This document shows positions 48,657-63,791 of a stretch of 64,000 nt of DNA, piece by piece. The notes under the pieces are model-generated. The model made no database searches and was not told where the DNA came from. It saw only the letters and a list, made by a program, of their open reading frames with translations. Source of the DNA: a bacterium (GTDB lineage: Bacteria > Vulcanimicrobiota > JABDET01); NCBI GenBank assembly GCA_021817145.1, contig JAKAVV010000007.1:66957-130956 (forward strand). The letters run 5' to 3'. How positions within the stretch are numbered: the stretch's first letter is position 1; every line of letters starts with the position of its first letter. A program made the position numbers and the translations under genes.

Positions 48657-51600
48657 ATGAAGCGCTCTTTCCTTTTTATCTTTTGGGTTCTTTTTTTTGT
48701 ATTTCCTGTTTTTATGGCTTATGGAAAGCTGGATAGATCAGGTTTTATCTCCCCTCGCGATCTGCGCCCAGGGATGGTTGGATACGGCAAAACGGTTTTT
48801 GAAGGAACTAAAATTTCAACCTTTAAAGTTGTCGTTTTAGGGGTTATTCCGAAATTTATTTCAGGAGCAGATTTGATTCTTGTTAAAGTGGAAAGCCCTT
48901 ATCTTCTCAAAAGAGGAATTGGTCTTGTTGCTGGAATGAGCGGATCTCCTGTGTATTTTGACGGGAAATTAGCAGGGGCTGTCGCTTATGGATGGCCCTT
49001 TACAAAAGCCGCGATCGCAGGGGTTGTCCCAATTAATGCCATGCTGACCACGAATCTTCCCGAAAAAGCTCCCAATCTTGCTTATGGAGGAACCTATCAT
49101 CTTGGAAAAGCAATGAGTATTGAAGGGAAAAAGGTCAATACGATTGTGGCTCAGCTCCCTGGGGAAGGAAATCAAGAAAATTCAGAAAGTTTGCCGAATT
49201 CTTTATCACTGGTTCCATTAAGCGGAATTCTAGCTGCTTCAGGATTTAACCCATCAGGATTTGCGGCTCTTGGGAAGATTTTCCCTATGGCTGAAATTGT
49301 TCCAGGCGGGGGGAAAATGAAGATTAAAGATCCTCCTCCTGTTGAACCAGGACAGTCTGTTGGGGTTGCTTTAATGGAAGGGGACATGAATCTGATTGCA
49401 ACCGGCACTTTGACTTATCGCAGTGGATCTCGGATTTTAGCTTTTGGGCATCCTTTTCTTTTTCTTGGGAACGTGGATTTCCCAATGGTCCAAACCTACG
49501 TCCACTATATCCTTCCCAGCATGGAACTCCCTTTTAAATTTGCCTCTCCTATTCGACCTGTTGGGCAGATTGCTCAAGATAGACTGTATGGGATTGGAGG
49601 AGTTTTAGGTAAATCCGCTTCTCTTGTTCCTATTAACATTACTGTTTTTGATAAAGAGAGAAAAGTCAGAAAAGAGTTTCATGTTAGAATTATTCGATCT
49701 CCAATCTTAACTCCGAGACTGGCTACATTGGCTATCAGCCAGGCGATTCCCGCTGTCACAAAGCTGCTGGGAGGAGCGACTGCATCTGTTGATTACACGA
49801 TTCAATTTCAGGGATATCCACCAATTAGAAAGAGAAATTTACTTTTTTCTCAAGCGAGCATTTCAGCGATAACCACTTTTGACGTGCTTGATCCACTACA
49901 GAAAATTTTGGAGAATAATTTTAAAAAGGTTCATTTAGTGAAAATCAATGTGAAAGTTAATGTGAAACCAGGGATTATGGCAGCCACTATTCAAAAAGTG
50001 GTTTTAGACAGGCATACCATAAAACCAGGAGGACTCCTGGGGATAAGGGTCTGGCTGAAGCCCTATGACAAAAAAGTTGTTGAAAAGCGGTTCAGAATAA
50101 GAATCCCTGCCGATGTTCAAGGGATAGTTCAGGTTGGTATTGCTGGTGGACCTGCGAATAATTTGTTGAAAAGAAATATGAGTATTCCCCCTCCTGCTCC
50201 ATTAAATGTAAAAGAGATGATCCAGCAGGTTCAGGAGGCTCCTCCTTTTAATTCTTTGATTATTCGTCTTTCACTTCCTAGAGGGGCTCTTAATTGGAAA
50301 GGGGAGTCTTTCTCCAATTTCCCTTCTGCTTATGCCAATTTGCTGAAGGCGTCTGGCTCAGGCTCTTTAACCCTTCATTCTGACAGCTTGAAACAGGTGT
50401 ACAGGATGCCCTGGGTTATTTTAGGAAGCACAATTAAACATGTCATGATTGAAGTGAGCCCTCAGCCAAAGCTGAAGCAGACTCCTATCCCACCGGTTCA
50501 ACCCCATCCTGTTTTCTTTGATCCAGCAGATAGTTTGCATCCTCTTTTTATAGACACTTCTTATTCTGCGGCTGCTCCTCTGGTTACTAATCATAAAGTG
50601 ATCCACAATCCGCAGCAAACAGTAACAAAAAGAGTTCTCCCTCCTTTGCCATCTCTGCCTACTGCGAATTCGCTGATCCCAAGCAATTTAGTGACAGTGT
50701 CATTTGATCAGTTGCAGAACTGGCAGCAAGGAACTTTGAAGAATCTGGCTGTTTCTCCAAAAGGGGATCTTTTTGCAGCTCCTGCCGTAAAAATTCTTGG
50801 GCATTTTAAAGAAAATAACCTTTTATCCATCACTGGATTCAAGGGAGCGCAGTATGTGGGCACTGCTGATCCTGGAAGAATTTATAAAGTGGCAAATGGA
50901 AAAAAAGTTTTATTTTTTAACCCTAAAACCATGGGTGTTCTGAGCATGGCATCTCTTTCAAATGGAGATCTGCTGGCAGGCACGATGAATGGAAGGATTT
51001 TCTGGCTTAATTCAAAGGGGAAGATAATCCACTGGTATCATCTTCCCGAGAAATACATTTGGGATATTGTACCCTATCGAAAAAAGATTTATATTGCTGC
51101 TGGGAATCCAAGTGGGGTTGTTTATGAGTTAAATCTTCTTGCTCCCAGTCACCCCCCTGTTCTTCTTGCAAAAACGGAGGAATCTCATATTACAGCCATC
51201 TATCCTGAGAAACATTACCTTTATGCTGGAACAGCAAATAATGGACTGCTGCTGAGAATTTATCCGGATGGGGTGGTTCAAACTGCTGCTGATTTGAATG
51301 CTCAGGAAATTCTTTCTCTTACAGGAAATTCTGCTGGGGATCTGTATATTGGCGTTTCAGGGAATGGGATGATCTATTGTCTGAGTCCAGATGGCAGTCT
51401 GCGCCTTTTAACCCAGCTCCCATCAAAAGATATAACCTGGCTTGGAGAAAGAAAAGGAAATCTTTTTGCTGGAACAGGAATTCCAGCCAGGCTTTATGCT
51501 GTCCAATCTGATGGTTCTGTATCTCTTTTATGGGATGGCAGTCCTTCACATAAAAGCATGCCTGAGATCGGATTGAAAGGGAATAAAAGCGGAAAGGATT

Positions 51601-52574
51601 TTATTGTTTCGGGAAATTCATCATCCCTTTTCCATTTTTCAGAGAAAGAATTTAAGAAAGGAGTCTTTTTATCTCAAATTTTGGATGCGGGGAATGGTTC
51701 TTTATGGGGAAGATTACTCTGGTATGGGAAAACGCCTCCAGGCTCCAGAATTCTCGTTAAAACCAGGACAGGGAATACTCCTTTTCCTGATTCTACCTGG
51801 AGTTCGTGGTCATCCCCTTATCCATCTTCAGGGAAAACGATTCTGAGTTCGGGAAGATATTTGCAGTTTAAGGTTTCTCTTTTTAGAGATTCAGAAGGAA
51901 GATCTCCTGTGATGAAAGGAGTGCAGCTGTTTTGGAAGCCTGAAAACTTACCCCCTGTGATCAATGTTCTGCTGCCAAAATCAGGAGATGTGATTGATTC
52001 CAAGTCCCTTCTGCGAGGAACACTGCAAGATGCAGAGGGGAACACTTTATTATTTGAAATCTGGACTGAAAGAAAAGGGATAGAGAAAAAAGTTTATTCG
52101 AATCTTTTTTCCACTCCTGTAAAAGGGGTAACCCCCTTTATGATCCCATTGAGTTTTATCCATCAGAATGGAATTTTAAACTTGAAAATTCTGGTTTCCA
52201 ATTCCCCTTCTAATTTGCCTGGTAATATTTTAAAAAAAGAGATGACCATTAAAAATTTAACGTTTGATTCCACAACTCCTGAGGTTGTTTTAACTAAAAT
52301 TTATACTCGAAATCAAACCCTTCATCTCCAGGGGAAAGCGTATGATTTCGGAAGTTATGTTAAAAATATTCAGGTGCGCATGAATGAAGGCCCGTGGTTT
52401 GAGACTGTTCCTGAAAATGGAATTTTTGATTCGAAAAAAGAAAGATTTTACTTTAATTTTTCAGGGATCCCTGTTTCAACCATCAAGCAGATTCAAGTCC
52501 GAGCTTCTAATGCTGCAGGGAATCAATTTACAGTTACAAAGCAGCTCAAAGAGCTGCTGGCAAAAGGAGGATAA
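48657..52574 (+). CDS. Large secreted multidomain protein with an N-terminal trypsin-fold (S55/SpoIVB-like) protease domain, β-propeller repeats and C-terminal Ig-like region
   Basis: A signal peptide is present. GMSGSPVY matches the GxSGSP Ser-protease motif. Repeated NG(R/L)I...DG blades lie around aa 860-1000. The ORF is 1305 aa. Confidence 0.55.
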   Translation: MKRSFLFIFWVLFFVFPVFMAYGKLDRSGFISPRDLRPGMVGYGKTVFEGTKISTFKVVVLGVIPKFISGADLILVKVESPYLLKRGIGLVAGMSGSPVYFDGKLAGAVAYGWPFTKAAIAGVVPINAMLTTNLPEKAPNLAYGGTYHLGKAMSIEGKKVNTIVAQLPGEGNQENSESLPNSLSLVPLSGILAASGFNPSGFAALGKIFPMAEIVPGGGKMKIKDPPPVEPGQSVGVALMEGDMNLIATGTLTYRSGSRILAFGHPFLFLGNVDFPMVQTYVHYILPSMELPFKFASPIRPVGQIAQDRLYGIGGVLGKSASLVPINITVFDKERKVRKEFHVRIIRSPILTPRLATLAISQAIPAVTKLLGGATASVDYTIQFQGYPPIRKRNLLFSQASISAITTFDVLDPLQKILENNFKKVHLVKINVKVNVKPGIMAATIQKVVLDRHTIKPGGLLGIRVWLKPYDKKVVEKRFRIRIPADVQGIVQVGIAGGPANNLLKRNMSIPPPAPLNVKEMIQQVQEAPPFNSLIIRLSLPRGALNWKGESFSNFPSAYANLLKASGSGSLTLHSDSLKQVYRMPWVILGSTIKHVMIEVSPQPKLKQTPIPPVQPHPVFFDPADSLHPLFIDTSYSAAAPLVTNHKVIHNPQQTVTKRVLPPLPSLPTANSLIPSNLVTVSFDQLQNWQQGTLKNLAVSPKGDLFAAPAVKILGHFKENNLLSITGFKGAQYVGTADPGRIYKVANGKKVLFFNPKTMGVLSMASLSNGDLLAGTMNGRIFWLNSKGKIIHWYHLPEKYIWDIVPYRKKIYIAAGNPSGVVYELNLLAPSHPPVLLAKTEESHITAIYPEKHYLYAGTANNGLLLRIYPDGVVQTAADLNAQEILSLTGNSAGDLYIGVSGNGMIYCLSPDGSLRLLTQLPSKDITWLGERKGNLFAGTGIPARLYAVQSDGSVSLLWDGSPSHKSMPEIGLKGNKSGKDFIVSGNSSSLFHFSEKEFKKGVFLSQILDAGNGSLWGRLLWYGKTPPGSRILVKTRTGNTPFPDSTWSSWSSPYPSSGKTILSSGRYLQFKVSLFRDSEGRSPVMKGVQLFWKPENLPPVINVLLPKSGDVIDSKSLLRGTLQDAEGNTLLFEIWTERKGIEKKVYSNLFSTPVKGVTPFMIPLSFIHQNGILNLKILVSNSPSNLPGNILKKEMTIKNLTFDSTTPEVVLTKIYTRNQTLHLQGKAYDFGSYVKNIQVRMNEGPWFETVPENGIFDSKKERFYFNFSGIPVSTIKQIQVRASNAAGNQFTVTKQLKELLAKGG

Positions 52575-53560: not shown

Positions 53561-55219
53561 ATGTCAGTTGGACTTGTTCTTGGAACCAGAGAATCTTCTC
53601 CCCTTGAGTTTTGGGTCGGAGTGGAAGAAGGGGAGTATCTTCAGCTCGATGATCTGGTAACTGTTCAAACAGAAGTTCCTGGAAAAAATGAAACGGTCAC
53701 ATTTTATGGAGTAGTGGATTTTGTCGCTAAAAAATTTGAAGGGACGCAGTTTGACTCAGATACCGCTTTAGCAGTAGGCGGGGTTTTGCCTGTTACCCTT
53801 TCTCATGCAGCCCATGTGGTGGTTACCAGGATTGAACCTGAACGATACATCCCTCCCCATCCAGGAAATAAAGTTTACCGCTGCACAGGGGACCAGGTCA
53901 GCCATGGGCTTTATTTTGATAGAATGGAGAAAAAGATCCCTGTTGGATTAAGCAAAACAGGGGATCCGATTTACTTAAATTGGGAGTTTTTAAATGGAGA
54001 AAAAGGGGCTCATGTCAGTATTTCAGGGATATCGGGGATTGCCACAAAAACGACGTTTGCCACTTTTCTTTTGTACAGTTTATTTCACTCAGGAGTTTTA
54101 GGAAATGAAGCTCCTAATACCCATGCTATTATTTTCAATGTTAAAGGGGAGGATCTGCTTTTTTTAGATAGGAAAAACAAAAAGTTTTCGGAAGAAGAGA
54201 AAAAAAAGTATGAGAGATTGAATTTAAGCCTTTCCCCTTTTGAATCTGTCTCCTTCCATGCCCCTGCAAAACCTCATGAATCTCTTTTAATCCCTGCCAC
54301 AACAACAAGAACCCAGGATGTCAAACCATTTTTCTGGACATTAAGACAGGTTGCCAGAGAAAGACTGCTTGGGTATTTCTTTGAAGAAGGGGGGGAAGAC
54401 CTGGGAATGATGGAACACGCGATCTCTGTTTTAATGGAAAAGCTGTTCCAGTTAGCTCAAGATGATAAACCAGATGATACCCCTTTGGTTTCGCAGTCTG
54501 GTTCTATGATGAATTCTCTGGATGATTTGCTAAATGATTTGCGTGACCATCCGGATGACTGGTATGGTTCAACACAAGTCGCTTCTCAAACTCAAAGAGC
54601 AATTTTTAGAAGACTGAGCCAGGCTCTGCAGCATGGCGGTTCACTGGTTAGACCCCTGCCCCCTGCCAGCAAATTATCCGATTATCAAATCTCCTGGAAA
54701 GAAAAACAGTTGACTGTGATTGACCTGCATACCCTGCAGTCAGGAGCAAAAATGTTTGTGGTAGGATCTGTTTTAAAGAAAGTTTTCGAAGAAAAAGAAA
54801 AAACAGGGACTGCTCTTCCCCGCGTTTTTATTGTTGTGGATGAATTGAACAAATACGCTCCAAGAGATGGCTGGAGCCCGATTAAAAACAAACTGCTGGA
54901 TATTGCTGAAAGAGGGAGAAGTCTTGGGATTATTTTAATTGGAGCCCAGCAGACAGCCAGTGAAGTGGAGCGAAGGATCTTTGGAAATGCCGCGATTAAA
55001 GTGGCGGGAAGACTGGATGCTTCAGAAGCAGAACACTCGGAGTACGATTTTTTAACCACGACTTTCAGGAAAAGAGCGATCATGCTGAATCCAGGAACCA
55101 TGATTATCACTCAACCCGATGTTCCAACCCCTGTTTTGATCCAGACCCCTTTCCCCTTATGGGCAACTCGTCCTCAAGAAGCCGAAGTTCCTGAAGATTT
55201 GTTTGAAAAGATTTTTTAA
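53561..55219 (+). CDS. HerA/DUF87-family ATPase (HAS-barrel plus RecA-like core), solitary
   Basis: An N-terminal HAS-barrel-like region is present. The Walker B is VFIVVDELNKYAP and the C-terminal motif is ILIGAQQTASEV ... IKVAGRL. The Walker A is atypical, reading GISGIATKTT. Confidence 0.6.
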   Translation: MSVGLVLGTRESSPLEFWVGVEEGEYLQLDDLVTVQTEVPGKNETVTFYGVVDFVAKKFEGTQFDSDTALAVGGVLPVTLSHAAHVVVTRIEPERYIPPHPGNKVYRCTGDQVSHGLYFDRMEKKIPVGLSKTGDPIYLNWEFLNGEKGAHVSISGISGIATKTTFATFLLYSLFHSGVLGNEAPNTHAIIFNVKGEDLLFLDRKNKKFSEEEKKKYERLNLSLSPFESVSFHAPAKPHESLLIPATTTRTQDVKPFFWTLRQVARERLLGYFFEEGGEDLGMMEHAISVLMEKLFQLAQDDKPDDTPLVSQSGSMMNSLDDLLNDLRDHPDDWYGSTQVASQTQRAIFRRLSQALQHGGSLVRPLPPASKLSDYQISWKEKQLTVIDLHTLQSGAKMFVVGSVLKKVFEEKEKTGTALPRVFIVVDELNKYAPRDGWSPIKNKLLDIAERGRSLGIILIGAQQTASEVERRIFGNAAIKVAGRLDASEAEHSEYDFLTTTFRKRAIMLNPGTMIITQPDVPTPVLIQTPFPLWATRPQEAEVPEDLFEKIF

Positions 55220-55314: not shown

Positions 55315-55530
55315 ATGGACGCTAGTGTGCCCTCCTGTAGGATGCCTGAAACTTGGTGCGGTTATAACTGCGATGCGCAATGCCTGCATTGTTGCCCTAT
55401 ACATGGCTGTTGTGATCATTGTAATGATGCTTGCATGTGTCGTTTGGGCAATTGCTGCTCAGGAATACCTCCAGGAACCATACACTCAACTGCAACTTCC
55501 TGTCGAAACAGCTGTCTTTGCCCTGATTAG
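55315..55530 (+). CDS. Very Cys-rich 71-aa ORF; alternatively the overlapping +1 frame 55325..55546 encodes a single-TM peptide
   Basis: TG-rich DNA gives Cys codons in one frame and a VVIIVMMLACVVWAIAA helix in the other. The true coding frame is unresolved. Confidence 0.2.
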   Translation: MDASVPSCRMPETWCGYNCDAQCLHCCPIHGCCDHCNDACMCRLGNCCSGIPPGTIHSTATSCRNSCLCPD

Positions 55531-55650
55531 AGCGTCTCCTGTTTAATTCAAAACTGCATGTTCTGCATCTTTCTCTTTTTCTTGTTTAAAGTTTCAGAAG
55601 GATTTAATCCTTTTTTGACAAAATTTTCGGGGTAGGATCTAGGAGGTGAT

Positions 55651-56616
55651 TTGGGGATCAGAACTCTCGATCTTTTTGCAGGGTGTGGTGGGAGCAGTCA
55701 GGGTGCCCGCTATGCAGGGTGTGAGATTGTTTCAGCCATTGATAAATGGAAACTGGCTGAGACTACTTTTAAGGATAATTTCCCAAAAACGCGTTTTTAC
55801 TGTGAGGAGATGGACTCCTTTACTTCAAAGCGGATACGCGCCGAGTTTAATAACATTGATTTGATTCTGGCGTCTCCTGAGTGTACAAATCATACCTGTG
55901 CTAAAGGAGGTGTTCGACGCTCTGAGGATATACGCTCTGAGGATAGCAGAAAGACGGCATTTCACGTTCTTAAGTTCGCCAAAGAGTTAATGCCTCGCTG
56001 GATTGTTATCGAAAATGTAACCCAGATGAGATCATGGTCCAGATATGCCGAATTTATCGAGAGTTTGCGCAGGGCGGGATCGGGGTATCAGGTCCGTGAG
56101 CAGGTTCTAAATTCGGCCGATTTCGGTGTGCCGCAGCGGAGGGTACGCCTGTTCATCCTTTGTGATCGAAAAAGAAAACCTCCTGAGGTGTTGCCGACTA
56201 GAAGAAGATGGGTCCCTATTGGTAAGTTTCTTGAAATGAACGGGAAATATTCATTAACGCCGCTTTATAGTAAGGGGCGTGCTGAGCGTACTATAGAACG
56301 TGCGAGACGAGCCATTAAGGAGCTCGAGAGAGATACACCCTTTCTCATTGTGTATTACGGCAACGATTCAGCGGGTGGCTGGCAGAGGCTGGATGCCCCG
56401 CTTCGCACGATTACGACGCTGGATCGTTTTGCCCTTGTCAGAAAGGAGGGTCGGTACTTAATGAGAATGCTGCAGGTTCCGGAACTGCAGGCTGCCATGG
56501 GATTTCCTGACAATTACAAATTTGAATTTGGGAGCAGGAGAGAAAAAATTCACTTACTGGGCAACGCCGTCTGTCCACCTGTTATGAAGGCGGTTGTTTC
56601 TCGCCTTACACATTGA
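55651..56616 (+). CDS. DNA (cytosine-5)-methyltransferase
   Basis: Motif I is LDLFAGCGG, motif IV is the PC-like ASPEC, motif VI is VIENV and motif VIII is VPQRRVRLFI. This gene marks the start of the higher-G+C island. Confidence 0.8.
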   Translation: MGIRTLDLFAGCGGSSQGARYAGCEIVSAIDKWKLAETTFKDNFPKTRFYCEEMDSFTSKRIRAEFNNIDLILASPECTNHTCAKGGVRRSEDIRSEDSRKTAFHVLKFAKELMPRWIVIENVTQMRSWSRYAEFIESLRRAGSGYQVREQVLNSADFGVPQRRVRLFILCDRKRKPPEVLPTRRRWVPIGKFLEMNGKYSLTPLYSKGRAERTIERARRAIKELERDTPFLIVYYGNDSAGGWQRLDAPLRTITTLDRFALVRKEGRYLMRMLQVPELQAAMGFPDNYKFEFGSRREKIHLLGNAVCPPVMKAVVSRLTH

Positions 56617-57305
56617 GGCAACTGGACGAGGCTAAGCTCAGGTTTTTCACCAGGAAATTGCTGGCCTGGTCCAGAGACAATCTTCGTAGCTATCCCTGGC
56701 GGAGAACCCGTAGTCCGTATCGCGTACTTATTGCGGAGCTCATGCTTCGGAGGACGCGGGCAGATCAGGTATTACCAGTCTATCGCCTTTTCATGCGTCG
56801 GTTTCCAACCCTGCGAGATTTCCTTGGCGGCACCGCGCAGGAGATACTAAAATTACTGAAACCGCTCGGGTTGCGCTGGAGGGCCAGGAATTTTATTTCC
56901 TTGCGCGATTATCTTGAAAAACATTCTATAAAGGTGTTGCCTCTCGAGTATCGCCTGCTGACGGCAATGCCCGGCATCGGCGATTATGTGGCCCGTGCCT
57001 TGCTTTGTTTTACAGGTGAATCGCCCGTTTACTTAGTGGACGTGAACGTAATCAGGCTTGTATGTAGATTCTTTGGATACCAAAATAATCCGGAACTCAG
57101 ACGGCGGAAATGGTTCCGTGAAATCATGGAGGCTTTGACCCTGCGGAAAAGGTGCCGCGAGTTTGTGCAGGTGACTCTGGATTTACCTGCCACGGTTTGC
57201 TTACCGAAAAAGCCAAAATGTGGGATATGTCCCTTGTTCCGGCGATGCTCTTATGGAGCTATGCTGTCGGTACCGCCGGATAACATGGGAAAGACCATTC
57301 TTTAA
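56613..57305 (+). CDS. HhH-GPD superfamily DNA glycosylase (EndoIII/MutY/Mig family) with a [4Fe-4S] cluster loop
   Basis: The helix-hairpin-helix is LTAMPGIGDYVARALL and the catalytic Asp region is LVDVNVIRL. The FCL motif is C-x6-C-x2-C-x5-C (CLPKKPKCGICPLFRRC). A TTG start overlaps the methyltransferase stop. Confidence 0.75.
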   Translation: MRQLDEAKLRFFTRKLLAWSRDNLRSYPWRRTRSPYRVLIAELMLRRTRADQVLPVYRLFMRRFPTLRDFLGGTAQEILKLLKPLGLRWRARNFISLRDYLEKHSIKVLPLEYRLLTAMPGIGDYVARALLCFTGESPVYLVDVNVIRLVCRFFGYQNNPELRRRKWFREIMEALTLRKRCREFVQVTLDLPATVCLPKKPKCGICPLFRRCSYGAMLSVPPDNMGKTIL

Positions 57306-57574
57306 GCGTTCGATTTCCCTATGCAGACGATTATATTCCTTGCTTCCACAACCACCCAGGCCAACTTGGATACCCATAGGCAATGAAGGAATAGTCTCGT
57401 CTGAGCAGGAATGATCGTTTAAAGCGTTTAATTCAGCAGGAAATCGGGAGGCCGGGAATACCTGAATCACCCTGAATGGAACGTGACCACTCCCCGGAAA
57501 AATCAGGTCAGTTCGCCGGCGGATTCAGGAGGTTGGACGTATTCCTGGCCAAGGAAATTGGAGGGTCATAGAGG

Positions 57575-58669
57575 GTGGCAGAAAACCCGGACGCGGCTTC
57601 ACTAAAATTTGCAGACCTCCTTTCCCAGAGGAAGTGGGAGAGTTATGAGCAATTTGTCTCCGAGGCGCCCGGATTCTATCAACAGGAACTCGAAGAGGAC
57701 ATCAAGCGCGAAGAAGGTCTGCGCGAAAAGATCAGGAAAGACCTTCTCCTTCACAAGTTCGAAGTAAAGAGCTACCGCGATCAGCTTGGTGAGGCAGAGA
57801 AGCTTCTTTTCTCAGGACGTGTTATAGCCATAGACGGGACCGTCTCAAAATTTAAAACCCTCTCAGGCCTGCGCTGCCAGATCGGCGTGGTGGCGGTAAA
57901 CTACTTCAATGATATGGTAAGGAAAGCTTACTTCATCTCAGAAGCCAGCCTCCGCAATGAGGAAAGCGAAGTCCTGGAAATCATCAAGAACCGCGAACAG
58001 CGCAATCGTCTCCTCTCTGACATGGTGGTCAGGGCACTTATGCTTTACCGCGAAAGGGAAGTTGCCATGAGGTCCGAGTATCTGGAAAGTTTCAGAATGC
58101 TGCACGGCCCTCTCCTTCCATTTGAGCTCATGACAGGCCTCGGACGCTTAAGGGCCCTGGAAGCAACGCTGGGGATACTCCAGTCGGTGGCAGCCGATCC
58201 AAAGTGCTTCAGCATTATTTCGGCCTCCACCCACGATGACTACCTGACGCTCGGGATGGCTCTTGAGCCGGGCGAATATATGCGGGACCCGAATTTCTCG
58301 CTCGGAGATGAGATAGCAGAAAACAAGGACTTCATGGTGGCTGAAAAATGGCGAGAATCTGAATTCGAAAGAGTAAAGGGTTTCTTGAGGACATTCGCTG
58401 ATAAGATTCACATAGGAATAATCCGGGTGTCCGGACACCCTTACGTGTTTTACGCCCACAAGGACACGTTTGATCTTGCAGTAGCCATTATCGCAAGAGA
58501 CTCCTTGCTCCAGAAGGAAAAAGGCTTCCCGTTGCTGGTGGACTATGCAGACACACTTTGCTCCGAATTCTTCCCTCCAGGGGACTTCACCGGTCAACTT
58601 TTATACAAACTTGCACAGGAAGGACACTTCCTTTCCGAAATAAGTGAAAGGGCTTTGCGTCAAAAATAA
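57575..58669 (+). CDS. NurA-like nuclease (putative)
   Basis: RVIAIDGTVSKF resembles the NurA catalytic 'hhAIDGS' motif. The ORF overlaps the downstream HerA-like gene by 26 bp. Confidence 0.45.
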   Translation: MAENPDAASLKFADLLSQRKWESYEQFVSEAPGFYQQELEEDIKREEGLREKIRKDLLLHKFEVKSYRDQLGEAEKLLFSGRVIAIDGTVSKFKTLSGLRCQIGVVAVNYFNDMVRKAYFISEASLRNEESEVLEIIKNREQRNRLLSDMVVRALMLYREREVAMRSEYLESFRMLHGPLLPFELMTGLGRLRALEATLGILQSVAADPKCFSIISASTHDDYLTLGMALEPGEYMRDPNFSLGDEIAENKDFMVAEKWRESEFERVKGFLRTFADKIHIGIIRVSGHPYVFYAHKDTFDLAVAIIARDSLLQKEKGFPLLVDYADTLCSEFFPPGDFTGQLLYKLAQEGHFLSEISERALRQK

Positions 58670-60368
58670 GGAGGACTTCATGACCGAAATCATAACAGGG
58701 GAAGCGCAGAAAGGTACCGATAAAACAACCCCCTCGCAGCAGCGAAAGGATCCCCTCGGGTTCGTGAATTTTGACGGGTCTTCTGGAGACAACAGCCTCG
58801 TCGATGTGCGGGTACCCCAGGATAGAATCGAAAGAATAAGGCGGGGGCAGTACGTGTTATTGATTGAGTCCAAAGGGGGAGATTCCTACCTGGGGCGCGT
58901 AACCAAAGGCCCCTTCTATAACCCGGACGCGGTCGGGCGTGACTCGGGCTTTGCGAAAGCCTCAATCCTCATGGGAGACAAAGTAAAATTCCTGCCGGAC
59001 TACCACGCAGTTTGCATGGTGGAAATCCTGGGAAGCGTATATCTGGACACCCTGTCGCTGAGCGGCCATACAACACGTCCCCTTCCAAAGACATTCGTCT
59101 GGGAACTCGATGAAAATAAGATTGAGGAATTACTGAATCTCAGGGGAAACATGTACCTGGGACACCTCGCGGGCTACGAGGGTGTCCGAGTTCACTTCCA
59201 GGCAGGCGACAAAAGGGTATTGCCTCGAAACGTCGGCATTTTCGGGACAGTGGGTTCCGGAAAAACCAACACCTCTCAGGTCCTGATCGAAGAGGCCTCT
59301 GCAGCAGGGTATGCTGTCGCCGTCCTTGACGTGGAAGGCGAGTACGTTTCCATGGACAGATCGAGCGAAGAGTTATCCGTCAGTCCCAGGTTGCGGGAAG
59401 CCGCCAGTCGCTTTGGAATTTCCCCTCGCGGAATCGACAGCCTGCGCGTTTACCGGGTGACGGGAACCGAGTCAAAGAGAAAGGATGCCATCGAGTTCTG
59501 CATAAAATTCGGAGACATTTCCCCGTACACACTGTGCGAGATAATGGGGCTCAACGAAGCTCAGGAACATAGATTTCTTGAACTCTACGACACTGCAGTG
59601 GAATCAGTGAGATCCGGCAAACAGCAACCCGGCGCGAAATCAAAGTGGGACAGACTCAAGGGTGGAGAAGCGGTGGTAGGGTTGGATCGCATCCCGGAAC
59701 TTACGTTGCAACTTCTCATTGATAAACTGCGAACAGACTTTCTCACGGGATCAAAGGGAGCCGACCGGTCCTCCTGGCTTAAGGTGAACCAGTTGCTCCA
59801 TAAACTGAAGCGATACCAGATTTTTGATACACACGAACAGGGATTGAACGTAAACGACCTTCTGACGCCAGGTCGGGTGAGCATATTTGATCTGAGCGAT
59901 TCCACCAACACGAGAATCAATAACATTGTCATCGCAGACATTCTCAGGCGCGTTTTTGATCACAAACTGAACAACGAAGATGCTCCTCCGACCCTGATCA
60001 TGATTGAGGAAGCGCATACTTTTGTAAGCCGCGAAAACGTATCGAAAATGGAATTTACAGTGGATCAGCTTCGGGAAATCAGCAGAAGAGGGCGCAAGCG
60101 ATGGCTGGGACTCTGCTTCATCTCCCAGCAGCCTGCTCATCTTCCTGACGAGCTGTACGAGCTCTGCAACACAAAAATCATTCACCAGACGACCGGCAAG
60201 AAAAACCTGGATGCCCTTCGCACTTCTGCAGGAAATGTGAACGAAGCGGTCTGGAGCGAAGTCCCGATCCTGGGCCAAGGTCGTAGCGTGATCATCAGCC
60301 CGCAGTTCACGCACCCCGTTCTCTGCGACATGAGGCCATGTCAGACGCACAGGGAATACACGGATTGA
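58644..60368 (+). CDS. HerA/DUF87-family ATPase
   Basis: The Walker A GIFGTVGSGKTNTSQ and Walker B LIMIEEAHTFVS are present. The C-terminal motif is CFISQQPAHL...CNTKIIHQ. Confidence 0.75.
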   Translation: MKGLCVKNKEDFMTEIITGEAQKGTDKTTPSQQRKDPLGFVNFDGSSGDNSLVDVRVPQDRIERIRRGQYVLLIESKGGDSYLGRVTKGPFYNPDAVGRDSGFAKASILMGDKVKFLPDYHAVCMVEILGSVYLDTLSLSGHTTRPLPKTFVWELDENKIEELLNLRGNMYLGHLAGYEGVRVHFQAGDKRVLPRNVGIFGTVGSGKTNTSQVLIEEASAAGYAVAVLDVEGEYVSMDRSSEELSVSPRLREAASRFGISPRGIDSLRVYRVTGTESKRKDAIEFCIKFGDISPYTLCEIMGLNEAQEHRFLELYDTAVESVRSGKQQPGAKSKWDRLKGGEAVVGLDRIPELTLQLLIDKLRTDFLTGSKGADRSSWLKVNQLLHKLKRYQIFDTHEQGLNVNDLLTPGRVSIFDLSDSTNTRINNIVIADILRRVFDHKLNNEDAPPTLIMIEEAHTFVSRENVSKMEFTVDQLREISRRGRKRWLGLCFISQQPAHLPDELYELCNTKIIHQTTGKKNLDALRTSAGNVNEAVWSEVPILGQGRSVIISPQFTHPVLCDMRPCQTHREYTD

Positions 60369-60372
60369 CAGG

Positions 60373-62625
60373 ATGAAGCAGCAGACAGAAACGGGCTCTG
60401 GTCAGGCGAAATTCAGGCCAAAGGCGCGGCTGGTTTCGATCCTCGGTGAGCATCTCATCCGGGATGGAACGGTTGGAATACTCGAGCTGGTCAAAAATGG
60501 TTACGATGCCGACGCATGCACGGTGAACGTGGAGCTACACGATCTCCAAAATCCCGAAGCAACGCGAATCATTGTAAAGGATGACGGGGTAGGAATGACC
60601 CTCAATCAGTTTTTGCATGAATGGCTGGAACCGGCATCTGGTCATAAGGAGCTCCAGAAGAAAAGAGGGCAGAGAACACAAAAAGGGCGCCTGCCTCTTG
60701 GCGAAAAAGGGGTAGGCCGGTTTGCCGCACACAAGCTGGGAAAATCCCTACACCTGATCACAAGGGCGAAGAATTCGCCGGTGGAGGTGGTGGTTGAAAT
60801 CGACTGGGGAGACTTTGATGATCCGGAAAAATTCCTCGACGATGTTACGGTGAATTGGGTCGAACGAAAGCCCGATGAATTTCCAGGAGATAGCAGCGGC
60901 ACATCGCTGGATATGCGCGGGGCGCGGGAAGCCTGGAGCCAGAAAGACCTCAAGCGACTTCATCGCGCCCTGACGACCCTTATGAGTCCCTTTAAAGGCC
61001 CGAAGAATTTCACCGTTAACCTCAAGTGTCCAGAATATCCACAGTATGAAAGCCTCGTGCCAGCAGCAATTTTCGACCGGGCTCATTACGTTTTTACGGG
61101 AATTATTGACGAACGCGGCACCCTCGAATACGAATACGCTTGCAGGCTACCCCAGTTCAAACCTCGCAATGAAAAGGGTAAAGTGAACCTTCCTCAATCC
61201 ATTAAAGGATGGCTTCCCTCCGATCGCCAGAGCCAATGCGGACCATTTATCCTTCAGCTTTACTACTGGGACCGCAGGAAAGAATATCTGGATCCAGTCG
61301 GCCTCAACAAGAAGGATATCGATCGAATCAATGGTGTCACAATATTCAGAGATGGAATCCGAATTCTGCCATACGGGGATCCAGAGGATGACTGGCTTGG
61401 CCTGAACGCGAGGCGTGTTGACATCCCAACAGAGCGTATCAGCACAGACGGTGTTGTTGCCTCAGTGGAAATAAATCAGGCAGAGAACCCGGGTCTGCGT
61501 GATAAGACAAATCGGGAGGGCCTGATAGAAAACGCTGCCTTCGTGGACATGAAGGATCTCGTGTTTGAAGCCATCACTACCGTATTCGAAGAAGAATGGT
61601 TCAGAGACAGACCCAGGAAAGAGAGCAATCCTGCAAGCACAGTAGAGGCAGCCAGTGGAAAGCTTAAAGAAAACGTCAGGGAGCTGTCATTGCAGAAGAG
61701 CAAAATAACAGAAATCGCCGGTCAGGTTGAAAGCATCGTCAAAGGCGGCGGGAAGATTCCGAAGCCCGTTCACGAACTGCTGGAGACCGTAAATCCACTG
61801 ATCATAACCACATCCACACTCGCAGCAAGTGCAAACGAGTTGAAGACCGCCCATGAAGAGATAGCTCGGGAGTTTGATCTTGAAAGAGATGTACTCCTCG
61901 GGATGGCTGGTCTGGGCCTTGCAGCCGAACGCTTTACCCACGAGTTTGCAAGGCTCACGAGGGAAGCTTCGCAGAATCTGAAGAAACTCAAGACATCGCT
62001 GGGACAGGCAAGTCCGGAGGCCTCAAGATACCTTGAAGCCCTTGAAGCAGCGCTCGATGCCCTTCGAAATGACATCCTTTCTCTCGGTCCCCTGTTCTAC
62101 GTAAGGCGGCCGACGAGGGAGAAATCCCTTTCCGTCAAAAGAGTTATAGATAACGTGTTGCTCCTCAATGCACAGCAAATCAAAGAAGCAAGGATACAGG
62201 TAGAAGTGAAGGAGAAGTTTCCCATTACAGTCGTCATGCGCGAAGGGCAGTGCACGCAGGTATTTAACAACCTCGTTGACAACGCAGTTTTCTGGCTTTC
62301 GAGAAAATCTCAGCAAGACGACAGGAAACTCAAAATCGTGATTGATGGCGACAGCCGTTCCGTCCTGGTCACGGATAACGGTCCCGGTGTCCTTCCGAAA
62401 TATGTCGACCGGCTCTTCCAGCCATTTTTCTCGACTAAACCGGAAGCCAGGGCAGAAGGAAGAGGCCTCGGTCTTTATATATCACGGGAAACATTGAAGC
62501 TTGTTGGAGGGACAATTTCTCTGACAGGCAGTAGTTCAGATGAAGAAGCATTCCCAACAGGAGCAGCGTTCGAGGTGATTTTTCCTGAGACAGCAACCCG
62601 CGAGACGGAAGGTCGAGGAGCATGA
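60373..62625 (+). CDS. Hybrid protein: N-terminal GHKL (MORC/Hsp90-type HATPase) domain plus C-terminal histidine-kinase core (DHp-like region plus HATPase_c)
   Basis: The N-terminal region has ILELVKNGYDADA (N-box), VKDDGVGMT (G1) and GEKGVGRFAAHKLG (G2). The C-terminal region has ERFTHEFARLT (candidate H-box), NLVDNAVFW (N), VTDNGPGV (G1) and GRGLGLYISRETLKLVGG (G2). Confidence 0.65.
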   Translation: MKQQTETGSGQAKFRPKARLVSILGEHLIRDGTVGILELVKNGYDADACTVNVELHDLQNPEATRIIVKDDGVGMTLNQFLHEWLEPASGHKELQKKRGQRTQKGRLPLGEKGVGRFAAHKLGKSLHLITRAKNSPVEVVVEIDWGDFDDPEKFLDDVTVNWVERKPDEFPGDSSGTSLDMRGAREAWSQKDLKRLHRALTTLMSPFKGPKNFTVNLKCPEYPQYESLVPAAIFDRAHYVFTGIIDERGTLEYEYACRLPQFKPRNEKGKVNLPQSIKGWLPSDRQSQCGPFILQLYYWDRRKEYLDPVGLNKKDIDRINGVTIFRDGIRILPYGDPEDDWLGLNARRVDIPTERISTDGVVASVEINQAENPGLRDKTNREGLIENAAFVDMKDLVFEAITTVFEEEWFRDRPRKESNPASTVEAASGKLKENVRELSLQKSKITEIAGQVESIVKGGGKIPKPVHELLETVNPLIITTSTLAASANELKTAHEEIAREFDLERDVLLGMAGLGLAAERFTHEFARLTREASQNLKKLKTSLGQASPEASRYLEALEAALDALRNDILSLGPLFYVRRPTREKSLSVKRVIDNVLLLNAQQIKEARIQVEVKEKFPITVVMREGQCTQVFNNLVDNAVFWLSRKSQQDDRKLKIVIDGDSRSVLVTDNGPGVLPKYVDRLFQPFFSTKPEARAEGRGLGLYISRETLKLVGGTISLTGSSSDEEAFPTGAAFEVIFPETATRETEGRGA

Positions 62626-63791
62626 AAGTCATCTTGCTGGATGATCACGCCGATACAATGGAGGAAGCTATCAGGTCCATTCGTGATTCGGGTGTGCAAT
62701 GTGAGCCCCTCAGGAACATCAGCGAACTCGAAAACTTACTGAACAAAGGTGAACCCTTTGATGGTGTAATCCTCGACTGGTTCCTGGACGACGAACCGGA
62801 CTCCAACCTTGCTAAAATTAGTCTGCAGAAGATAAGGGAGCATAGATTCGTCCCCGTCTTCGTTTACACCGAACACCGTACAGAATATGAAAGAGAAGCT
62901 GACTCGATTGATTTTCCTAGATCCTGCATAAGCTCCTTCAGCAAGAAAGCTTTGCCCGAGTCCAATCTTGGCGCGAAGATCAAGGAATGGCTTGACGGGT
63001 TTTTCGCAGGAAAAATTTCCAGAAGCTGGCGGAAAGCAAACCAGGGCGCAATCGAGAAGGTTCTCTATGAACTGGCCAGCATGGACGATGACGGAGTTGT
63101 AGGCTCCCTACAACGCATGATCCAGAGTGAAAATGGAGAAGCATACGACGTTGATCACGCCCTTGAGTTGCTGCACCGAATCAGCGTGCGAGTGCTGTCG
63201 AATGATGCGAAACTGCGGAGCATCCTTAAAAGTTGCTTAAAGTCCAAAACAAACAATAAAAAAGCGACTGAAATGAAAATTTGGCAATTCCACATGTATT
63301 ACCAGCCAGGCGGCGACATCGTCAGGGCTGGTGACATTGTTCAGAGCAAACGGGACAGTCATGAGGAAATGGAATATTTCGTAATCCTTACCCCGGCCTG
63401 CGATCTCGCCCAGTTTAAAACCACATACCTGCGTCTCGTGAGAATGATCCCACATAACTTCGCTGATGGAGAACCACCTCGACACCTTTATTTCCTCCCG
63501 TTCGTTCCGCTGGATGCCACGAAGATCGCTGATTTTGCAATTGACTTTCATCAGTCCTTTGCGGTTCGCAATGAGAGCATCGAACAGGAATGGCAAAAGC
63601 TACAGAAGGAGAAAGGTCAGAAAAAACTGCCAAAGATCAACATGGCTTACAGCCACAAGTATCAAGAGATGTCTGGAGAAGGAATCGTCTTGAAGTGCAT
63701 TGCCCGCCTGGATGATCCTTACAGATCCGATCTTTTCCAAAAATTCTCCTCCCACGCAAGCAGAATTGGAGTACCAGATGTGTCGAGCTAA
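62622..63791 (+). CDS. Receiver (REC)-domain protein with an uncharacterised roughly 260-aa C-terminal domain
   Basis: The N-terminus MKVILLDDHADTMEE...FDGVILDWFL has the acidic pocket and a phospho-acceptor Asp candidate. The start overlaps the kinase stop as ATGA. Confidence 0.5.
   Translation: MKVILLDDHADTMEEAIRSIRDSGVQCEPLRNISELENLLNKGEPFDGVILDWFLDDEPDSNLAKISLQKIREHRFVPVFVYTEHRTEYEREADSIDFPRSCISSFSKKALPESNLGAKIKEWLDGFFAGKISRSWRKANQGAIEKVLYELASMDDDGVVGSLQRMIQSENGEAYDVDHALELLHRISVRVLSNDAKLRSILKSCLKSKTNNKKATEMKIWQFHMYYQPGGDIVRAGDIVQSKRDSHEEMEYFVILTPACDLAQFKTTYLRLVRMIPHNFADGEPPRHLYFLPFVPLDATKIADFAIDFHQSFAVRNESIEQEWQKLQKEKGQKKLPKINMAYSHKYQEMSGEGIVLKCIARLDDPYRSDLFQKFSSHASRIGVPDVSS

Follow-up and report, generated by a model that had tools for sequence, protein, structure and literature searches.

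We analysed a 64,000-nucleotide stretch of the genome of a bacterium of the Vulcanimicrobiota (positions 66,957 to 130,956 of contig JAKAVV010000007.1, assembly GCA_021817145.1; hereafter the window), in which a block of ~8 kb (55.6–63.8 kb) with a higher GC content than its flanks carries a C5 cytosine DNA methyltransferase, a MutY/Mig-like glycosylase and four co-directional genes (genes 1 to 4) for a NurA-like nuclease, a HerA ATPase, a paraMORC–histidine kinase hybrid and a receiver protein. The GC content steps up from ~0.42 to 0.48-0.54 at ~55.6 kb and, in a longer contig of the same genome (metagenome-assembled genome (MAG) assembly GCA_027421685.1), is back at ~0.42 directly past gene 4, from which it follows that the six genes exactly fill the foreign block; this block is horizontally acquired and of foreign origin. 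A preliminary description of the locus had recognized a four-gene operon in a foreign island next to a methyltransferase: the foreign composition stood, but the methylase and the glycosylase proved to lie inside the same block, making the unit larger than the four genes described. The features of the block are as follows.

55651..56616, forward strand: C5 cytosine DNA methyltransferase (Dcm-type), first gene of the high-GC block (Pfam DNA_methylase, E 1.6e-40)
56613..57305, forward strand: MutY/Mig-type HhH-GPD glycosylase with a 4Fe-4S motif (Pfam HhH-GPD, 3.4e-8; EndIII_4Fe-2S)
57306..57574, no strand assigned: intergenic leader of 270 bp upstream of the NurA-like gene, with two imperfect inverted repeats
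57575..58669, forward strand: gene 1, NurA-like nuclease of RNase H-like fold, starting at a GTG 10 nt past GGAGG
58680..60368, forward strand: gene 2, HerA-family ATPase, a predicted hexameric translocase (Pfam DUF87, 4.8e-21; HerA_C, 3.1e-8)
60373..62625, forward strand: gene 3, soluble fusion of a paraMORC-type GHKL ATPase with a histidine-kinase core (Pfam HATPase_c_3, 4.8e-20; HATPase_c, 3.9e-22)
62622..63791, forward strand: gene 4, receiver protein with a REC domain (residues 1-125), a helical linker (126-225) and a beta-rich C-terminal domain (226-389; 63297-63788)

The list of open reading frames (ORFs) gives the four co-directional ORFs as 57575-58669, 58644-60368, 60373-62625 and 62622-63791, and the tight packing noted earlier held for the 4-bp gap between genes 2 and 3 and for the 4-bp overlap (ATGA) between genes 3 and 4. 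The overlap between genes 1 and 2 was an artefact of a wrong start at an upstream GTG: the start at ATG 58680 lies 5 nt past a perfect GGAGG, was also chosen by independent gene calls of the same genome and is consistent with the homologues, and the corrected gene 2 (58680-60368) follows 10 bp beyond the NurA-like gene in the same direction. The 270-bp leader is likely the promoter/regulatory region of the four-gene operon. Its inverted repeats, one at 57324-57403 (18 nt, 83% complementarity) and one at 57450-57550 (28 nt, 75%), may form a structure for regulation or attenuation; scans of the leader for a consensus sigma-70 promoter and for terminators stayed at background, and no Rfam family matched it.

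The NurA-like nuclease was identified by structure search alone. An AlphaFold model built from 53 homologues (predicted local distance difference test 89.8, predicted template modelling score 0.87) has the NurA-type RNase H-like fold, its best fold matches being the nucleases of archaeal and Deinococcus HerA-NurA. We found no match to gene 1 in Pfam, NCBIfam, PADLOC or PHROGs (E<=0.01-0.1) and no relatives in plasmid, phage and viral-contig collections, and a PDB search with the profile of the 53 homologues (E<=10) returned no NurA. The earlier assignment of this gene as NurA-like thus stood at the level of the fold, but not as sequence-profile membership in Pfam or the PDB. Its ~196 homologue clusters, from bacteria and archaea, are all labelled 'hypothetical', and the gene is rare, at ~200 homologue clusters in 5.8 billion proteins. 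The invariant residues among the homologues are D87 (of a DGT motif in the first core strand), E160, H177-G178, D309 and D323, a set that appears compatible with an RNase H-like active site.

Gene 2 scored well above the Pfam cut-offs (PF01935, 76.3 bits against a cut-off of 23.2; PF05872, 33.2 against 22) and has a Walker A motif (GTVGSGKT) at residue 189 and a Walker B motif (LIMIEEAH) at residue 439. Its best matches in the PDB were to archaeal HerA proteins (9x1l, 5.5e-17; 4d2i, 1.4e-16), with TdpA at 5.4e-4, and in PADLOC it matched only generic models (HerA models down to 2.2e-22; mad8, 7.9e-19). Together these matches bear out the call of HerA rather than a generic FtsK/VirB4-type ATPase. 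The window holds a second HerA gene (53561-55219, forward strand) of host-like GC content immediately upstream of the island, which matched the Deinococcus radiodurans HerA (7f6d_B) at E 4.1e-135 and in which Pfam finds nothing; no host NurA gene adjoins it, and none was found within 10 kb beyond the island.

The gene 3 protein has no sensor domain and no membrane domain, and no membrane-like segment was found in any of the four proteins of genes 1 to 4. It begins with a GHKL domain of the HATPase_c_3 (MORC/MutL) type (residues 36-177; 60478-60903), in a region resembling the N-terminus of the BbrUII/HgiDII restriction enzymes (NCBIfam, 3.4e-15), followed by a conserved middle region (181-400) and a variable linker (401-505) whose 105 residues average 25% identity. 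A complete histidine-kinase core occupies the C-terminal half, matching histidine kinases in the PDB down to 3.2e-12, and consists of a DHp domain with an invariant H523-E-F (His codon 61939-61941; motif ERF[TS]-H523-E-F) and a CA domain (residues 626-740; 62248-62592). Across 21 loci the N-box and G2 box of the GHKL domain, the H-E-F of the DHp domain, and the N-box (N633/N637) and G2 box (GRGLG) of the CA domain are invariant, with variation in the two G1 boxes (D[DN]GxGM and [DN][NS]Gxx). The match to PF19191 (HEF_HK) was below the cut-off (E 0.0027; 18.6 bits against 24.1), and PADLOC gave only weak PDC-M43B and REase_II matches. The sensorless hybrid of a MORC-type GHKL ATPase and a histidine kinase that had been read from this gene is therefore upheld by HATPase_c_3, HATPase_c and the H-E-F DHp domain. 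Two phage protein families of unassigned function resemble the kinase: phrog_8137 (E 1.4e-40) over residues 492-717 (window 61846-62523) and phrog_6203 (E 1.9e-21) over residues 36-215 (window 60478-61017). As separate families correspond to each half, phages evidently encode HEF-type kinase cores and paraMORC ATPases.

Gene 4 has the acidic pocket, phospho-acceptor Asp and conserved Lys of the receiver fold, with D8, D52 (the phospho-acceptor, codon 62775-62777) and K108 invariant, while its match to PF19192 (Response_reg_2) was again under the cut-off (18.2 bits against 27). The C-terminal domain has its own set of invariant residues (Y226, G237-D238, P258, C260-D261, P366, R381, G383 and P385), and searches with it returned nothing in Pfam at E 10, in a PDB profile search or in PHROGs, in keeping with the earlier view of it as novel. 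No recognisable DNA-binding output domain was found in gene 4, and no plasmid relatives at the tblastn level. The C-terminal domain itself was found in 1147 representative proteins, most often as the C-terminal part of a protein of ~360-440 residues, and 3 of 10 carriers scanned had a recognisable receiver domain. We also considered gene 4 as a sequence-specificity reader that co-varies with the methylase; the partial correlation was only 0.38, and this idea was not adopted.

The methylase has the motifs FAGCGG, PEC (with the catalytic Cys), ENV and QRR and matched the PADLOC DrmMII model over its full length (E 1.6e-105); in none of the six genes was a modification domain found other than that of the methylase. 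The glycosylase, the first 4 bp of whose gene overlap the end of the methylase gene, matched NCBIfam mutY at 2.5e-45 (under the equivalog cut-off) and the PADLOC 'type II nicking endonuclease' at 2.2e-33. Vsr is the usual partner of C5-methylase restriction-modification (R-M) systems, and the glycosylase is probably its functional analogue, repairing T:G mismatches after deamination of 5-methylcytosine (5mC). Vsr itself (PF03852) occupies the equivalent place in the related loci L006/L007 and L021 (L006 8221-8664; L021 8351-8785), and the swap looks like a non-orthologous displacement of the 5mC-deamination repair function.

To see how widely this arrangement occurs we conducted a pattern scan of one genome per species across ~186,000 species genomes (GTDB), which yielded 24 loci (identified by L numbers). 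All 24 carry a C5 methylase in linkage with the nuclease-containing module; in 22 of them its gene immediately precedes the NurA-like gene, in L030 it is truncated, and in L008 it has been rearranged to a place beside gene 4. Except in the degraded L030, NurA is followed by HerA in every locus whose contig extends beyond it. The kinase was present in each of the 19 loci extending far enough, and the receiver, adjacent to the kinase, in 14 of the 18 informative ones. The constant core is methylase-NurA-HerA-kinase. Four loci of the Woesearchaeota/Thaumarchaeota type (L013, L015/L006, L016 and L019) lack the receiver while their kinases retain H523, and the genes downstream of the kinase differ in each (a 1090-residue AAA_22/NPHP3-like NTPase, HEPN AbiV, a winged helix-turn-helix protein and DUF4238); a conserved substitute for the receiver was looked for in these loci and not found. 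Co-conservation of the tetrad, on which the preliminary description was to stand or fall, holds across bacteria and archaea, except that the receiver is missing from the archaeal-type clade. A mismatch repair gene (Vsr or an HhH-GPD glycosylase) stands beside the methylase in many loci. Directly after the receiver gene an HNH_2 endonuclease (PF13391) occurs in L020 (16021-16797), L021 (15998-16801), L025 (16009-16812) and L030 (14134-14790) and, more weakly, in L011 (16408-17454); this Bacteroidota subgroup, together with the weaker case in one Anaerolineae locus, points to a putative optional extra nuclease of the system.

The hosts are drawn from six or more bacterial phyla and from several lineages of archaea (Acidobacteriota, Chloroflexota, Bacteroidota, Ignavibacteria, Verrucomicrobiota, Proteobacteria, Woesearchaeota, Thaumarchaeota and Methanosarcinales). 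Because NurA identities across this broad range are 41-65%, we take the cluster to have spread laterally as a unit. Mean pairwise identity is highest for HerA (0.67) and NurA (0.61), lower for the kinase (0.51) and the methylase (0.44), and lowest for the receiver (0.35); within the Bacteroidota/Ignavibacteria group, identities of 76-100% for NurA and HerA go with a reshuffling of methylase, kinase and receiver. The neighbours in other loci are conjugation and defence genes (TrbC, VirB4-like, SLFN_AlbA_2 and HEPN AbiV), and no Mre11/Rad50 Pfam families were found among the neighbours of L001-L007. We had also considered methylase-less loci with broken NurA or HerA genes as a sign of toxicity and rejected this, as L021 and L008 do carry C5 methylases, which had been missed by a single-sequence hidden Markov model. 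Fragmented genes occur in MFD-labelled MAGs, which we take to be nanopore assemblies prone to frameshift errors.

Searches beyond these loci identified distant relatives of gene 4 that share both the REC and the C-terminal domain (E 1e-9 to 1e-24). These lie in triads of C5 methylase, paraMORC-kinase and receiver, with neither NurA/HerA nor any other nuclease, from Pseudonocardia, from metagenomes and from the conjugative plasmid pREB1 of Acaryochloris marina; on a plasmid of Enterobacter mori the kinase and receiver pair occurs with no adjacent methylase detected. Such triads are not new: 644 loci with HEF_HK, Response_reg_2 and a C5 methylase, often with Vsr or HNH_2, have been described in silico (Bellieny-Rabelo et al. 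2021, PMC8011034). The block shares with them the soluble kinase (HATPase_c_3, an H-E-F DHp domain and HATPase_c), the adjacent receiver, the upstream C5 methylase and the frequency of Vsr or HNH_2 genes nearby, and differs in that a NurA-HerA pair is inserted between methylase and kinase; the main text of PMC8011034 makes no mention of HerA, DUF87 or NurA. As the window proteins fall below the Pfam cut-offs and the triad relatives have no match to PF19191/PF19192, we place them in a sister branch with the same architecture. Targeted literature searches found no description of a methylase-NurA-HerA-kinase-receiver cluster. Thus, of the novelty first claimed for the arrangement, the NurA-HerA insertion remains; the methylase, paraMORC-kinase and receiver core was already known from comparative genomics, and the insertion appears to be an undescribed, rare variant of it.

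HerA-NurA is the classical end-resection complex of archaea and Deinococcus. Like those pairs (2ygk, 4d2i, 7f6d and 9x1l), the genes here are adjacent and co-directional and gene 2 is of the HerA family; unlike them, gene 1 does not resemble NurA at the level of sequence, linkage to Mre11/Rad50 is lacking, and the pair is linked to a methylase and a kinase, has foreign GC content and is laterally mobile. A closer parallel may be TdpABC, a phosphorothioate modification gene cluster (PMC12914056) whose HerA-like TdpA and NurA-like TdpB have been solved as a complex (PDB 8wet). A HerA-like and NurA-like pair of this kind is found in the block as well, but the modification differs, being 5-methylcytosine by a Dcm-type enzyme here and phosphorothioate by TdpC there. 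TdpAB is the restriction half of TdpABC, and that system is not known to have a kinase/receiver pair. In the SIR2-HerA and DUF4297-HerA systems (8xau, 8j4u, 9c1m and others), to whose HerA proteins gene 2 is related at ~E 1e-10, a HerA hexamer is likewise encoded alongside an effector; that partner is SIR2 or a Cap4-like nuclease, in contrast to the NurA-fold nuclease here, and these systems have no methylase and no kinase/receiver genes.

For the kinase and receiver, a His-Asp relay is known as an anti-phage switch in Detocs (bioRxiv 10.1101/2023.01.24.525353). The likeness lies in a receiver domain fused to an effector domain and in the phosphorelay switch. Detocs is not known to include a methylase, HerA-NurA or a GHKL/MORC module, and its effector is reportedly an ATP-depleting nucleosidase. 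The paraMORCs of R-M systems, whose partners are superfamily II helicases, RE-fold, TIR or HNH proteins, were suggested by Iyer et al. 2008 (PMC2292703) to act as an ATP-dependent DNA sensor or clamp. Gene 3 has in common with the paraMORC GHKL domains of R-M systems and of BbrUII/HgiDII the intact ATP-binding motifs and the linkage to cytosine methylases, Vsr and HNH nucleases; the main text of that study mentions no histidine-kinase fusion, receiver, HerA or NurA. MADS, BREX-related capture systems and Dnd/HerA capture systems were also considered as the same system and were rejected, a HerA-like ATPase being all they have in common with the block: the MADS preprint and the BREX-related survey report only a HerA-like ATPase in other contexts, and neither NurA nor a histidine kinase or receiver domain comes up in the Dnd/HerA 'capture system' paper.

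Based on the strict linkage to a methylase, the deamination-repair companions, the mobility of the block and the conjugation and defence genes around its relatives, we consider it reasonably probable that the six genes form a horizontally mobile, methylation-based (R-M-like) defence island, in which NurA–HerA would be the effector and the His-Asp relay its switch; the earlier coupling of NurA, HerA, kinase hybrid and receiver in one operon is confirmed, and its interpretation as defence is supported. On this model the C5 methylase would mark host DNA as self, and the Mig/MutY-like glycosylase would repair the T:G mismatches arising from 5mC deamination. We infer that the NurA-like nuclease and the HerA hexamer would form a complex, a translocase-nuclease machine parallel to TdpAB of the phosphorothioate system, that would degrade unprotected DNA processively and so restrict unmethylated invader DNA. 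The paraMORC module of gene 3 may act as an ATP-dependent DNA sensor or clamp, DNA then being what is sensed, and the signal would run from autophosphorylation on H523 to D52 of the receiver, whose C-terminal domain might then make a first cut, license NurA-HerA or act as a second, toxin-like effector. As the triads are free of any other nuclease, the kinase and receiver probably belong to the restriction logic itself and are not accessory regulators. We speculate more tentatively on a phosphorelay-gated restriction, in which the MORC-like clamp would read methylation, the His-Asp signal would activate a receiver-fused, possibly MazF-like effector and HerA-NurA would thereby be unleashed; this specific version is possible, though we are doubtful of it.

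Several observations weigh against such a defence system as we propose it. The archaeal-type clade keeps the kinase His with no receiver gene nearby, and the relay is thus not essential in the proposed form. No fold relative could be identified for the C-terminal domain of gene 4, and any role given to it is a guess; moreover, the methylases of L022 and L028 are 88% identical and their gene 4 proteins only 38%, which makes gene 4 unlikely to be a sequence-specificity reader. In gene 1, strand 4 ends in the invariant H177 where an acidic residue (Asp) is expected in RNase H-like nucleases, a position assigned from secondary structure only, without residue-level superposition, and the predicted nuclease activity is accordingly not assured. 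Finally, PADLOC v2 recognises only generic HerA and methylase parts of the block, and genes 1 and 4 are without a model in PADLOC-DB v2.

Among the alternatives, we regard abortive infection as unlikely, though less so than the others. The C-terminal domain of gene 4 would here be a MazF/PemK/CcdB-like toxin and the true effector of the kinase/receiver pair, restrained by the REC and helical domains and freed by phosphorylation once the paraMORC-kinase senses unmethylated DNA, with NurA-HerA an add-on then destroying the DNA. Triads of methylase, kinase and receiver without other nuclease would fit this scheme, and gene 4 is the fastest evolving of the genes, as arms-race effectors are. A Foldseek search of the viral structures in BFVD placed five 'PemK-like' models in the top 50 at probabilities of 0.72-1.00; however, their root-mean-square deviations and TM-scores were poor, and the structure searches used the whole gene 4 protein, whose REC domain dominates the matches. 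The order of secondary-structure elements in residues 238-381 is that of the MazF topology, and hhalign with a deep profile set R-x-GDIV...VVLTPxCD in register with GDLIWV...RPAVVLSP of MazF (39 columns, pairwise P 0.029; the template was a small PemK alignment, its sequences checked against Pfam). The hhalign probability was nevertheless just 0.4-1.7%, the catalytic Arg and Thr of MazF are not conserved, gene 4 had no match to Pfam PemK_toxin even at E 10, and no PemK genes were found among the fetched loci.

It is improbable, in our view, that the kinase and receiver merely regulate, transcriptionally or post-translationally, the timing of methylase and NurA-HerA expression in the manner of R-M controller (C) proteins. 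Two-component systems do mostly control transcription, the archaeal-type clade manages without a receiver, and the operon is preceded by a 270-bp leader with inverted repeats; against this, gene 4 lacks a recognisable DNA-binding output domain, gene 3 combines the lack of a sensor or membrane domain with an intact paraMORC ATPase of the type fused in BbrUII/HgiDII, and the triads contain nothing else to regulate. Housekeeping or stress-induced double-strand-break repair, with HerA-NurA end resection placed under two-component control, would account for the classical function of HerA-NurA and for the best fold matches of gene 1 to those very nucleases, but sits badly with the strict C5 methylase linkage, the foreign GC content and the patchy phyletic distribution; Mre11/Rad50 occur in none of the neighbourhoods examined, and the host already has its separate Deinococcus-type HerA just upstream. 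The locus is not a repair operon of a known kind, which would have refuted the preliminary description, and we find this explanation very improbable. Equally slight, to our minds, is the chance that the R-M-like unit is a selfish addiction module that stabilises a mobile element by post-segregational killing and has no primary anti-phage role. The mobility of the block (foreign GC content, a transposase and an antitoxin nearby) and the relatives on conjugative plasmids and beside type IV secretion system genes would suit it, yet these are also compatible with defence; R-M systems as a rule play both parts, and none of the present observations tells them apart.

Around the block we noted several further features. 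Downstream lie a PhdYeFM antitoxin gene and an rve transposase gene, and at the borders of the island no tRNA and no Rfam element was found. At 13029-13269 of L032, ~3 kb past the window end, three tandem AT-rich units of 71-72 nt, each holding an ATG-led 'MEKINKIY' start, form an array directly upstream of the rve-family transposase gene, and the PhdYeFM antitoxin gene near this array has no called toxin partner. Between the host HerA and the island (window 55315-55546, forward strand) are two overlapping small ORFs, neither with a family match: a hydrophobic 73-residue protein, which is the ORF picked by gene finders, and a Cys-rich peptide of 71 residues (CCPIHGCCDHCNDACMC). Further upstream (window 48657-52574, forward strand) a host gene of no relation to the NurA–HerA block encodes a very large Peptidase_S55 (SpoIVB-like) protein of 1305 residues, whose C-terminus is extended by a long beta-propeller-like region.

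Bacterial immune systems recombine a small number of modules, such as methylases, HerA motors, nucleases and sensor switches, and three of these, Dcm-type methylation, a HerA-NurA machine and a histidine kinase/receiver relay, were not found reported together in the literature searched. One of the loci, L023, is carried by a cultured strain, Hydrotalea flava CCUG 51397, and our proposal is thus directly testable. If the relay gates restriction, two-component signalling can serve an intracellular nucleic-acid sensor and not an environmental one, MORC-type ATPases would gain a prokaryotic signalling output, with a bearing on how eukaryotic MORCs read chromatin state, and NurA-HerA, best known from DNA repair, would have been recruited repeatedly for defence. 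Should the phosphorelay-gated version in particular be true, no immune system before it would have combined epigenetic discrimination of self from non-self, two-component signalling and the archaeal end-resection machine, and a domain family with over 1100 protein clusters would gain a function.

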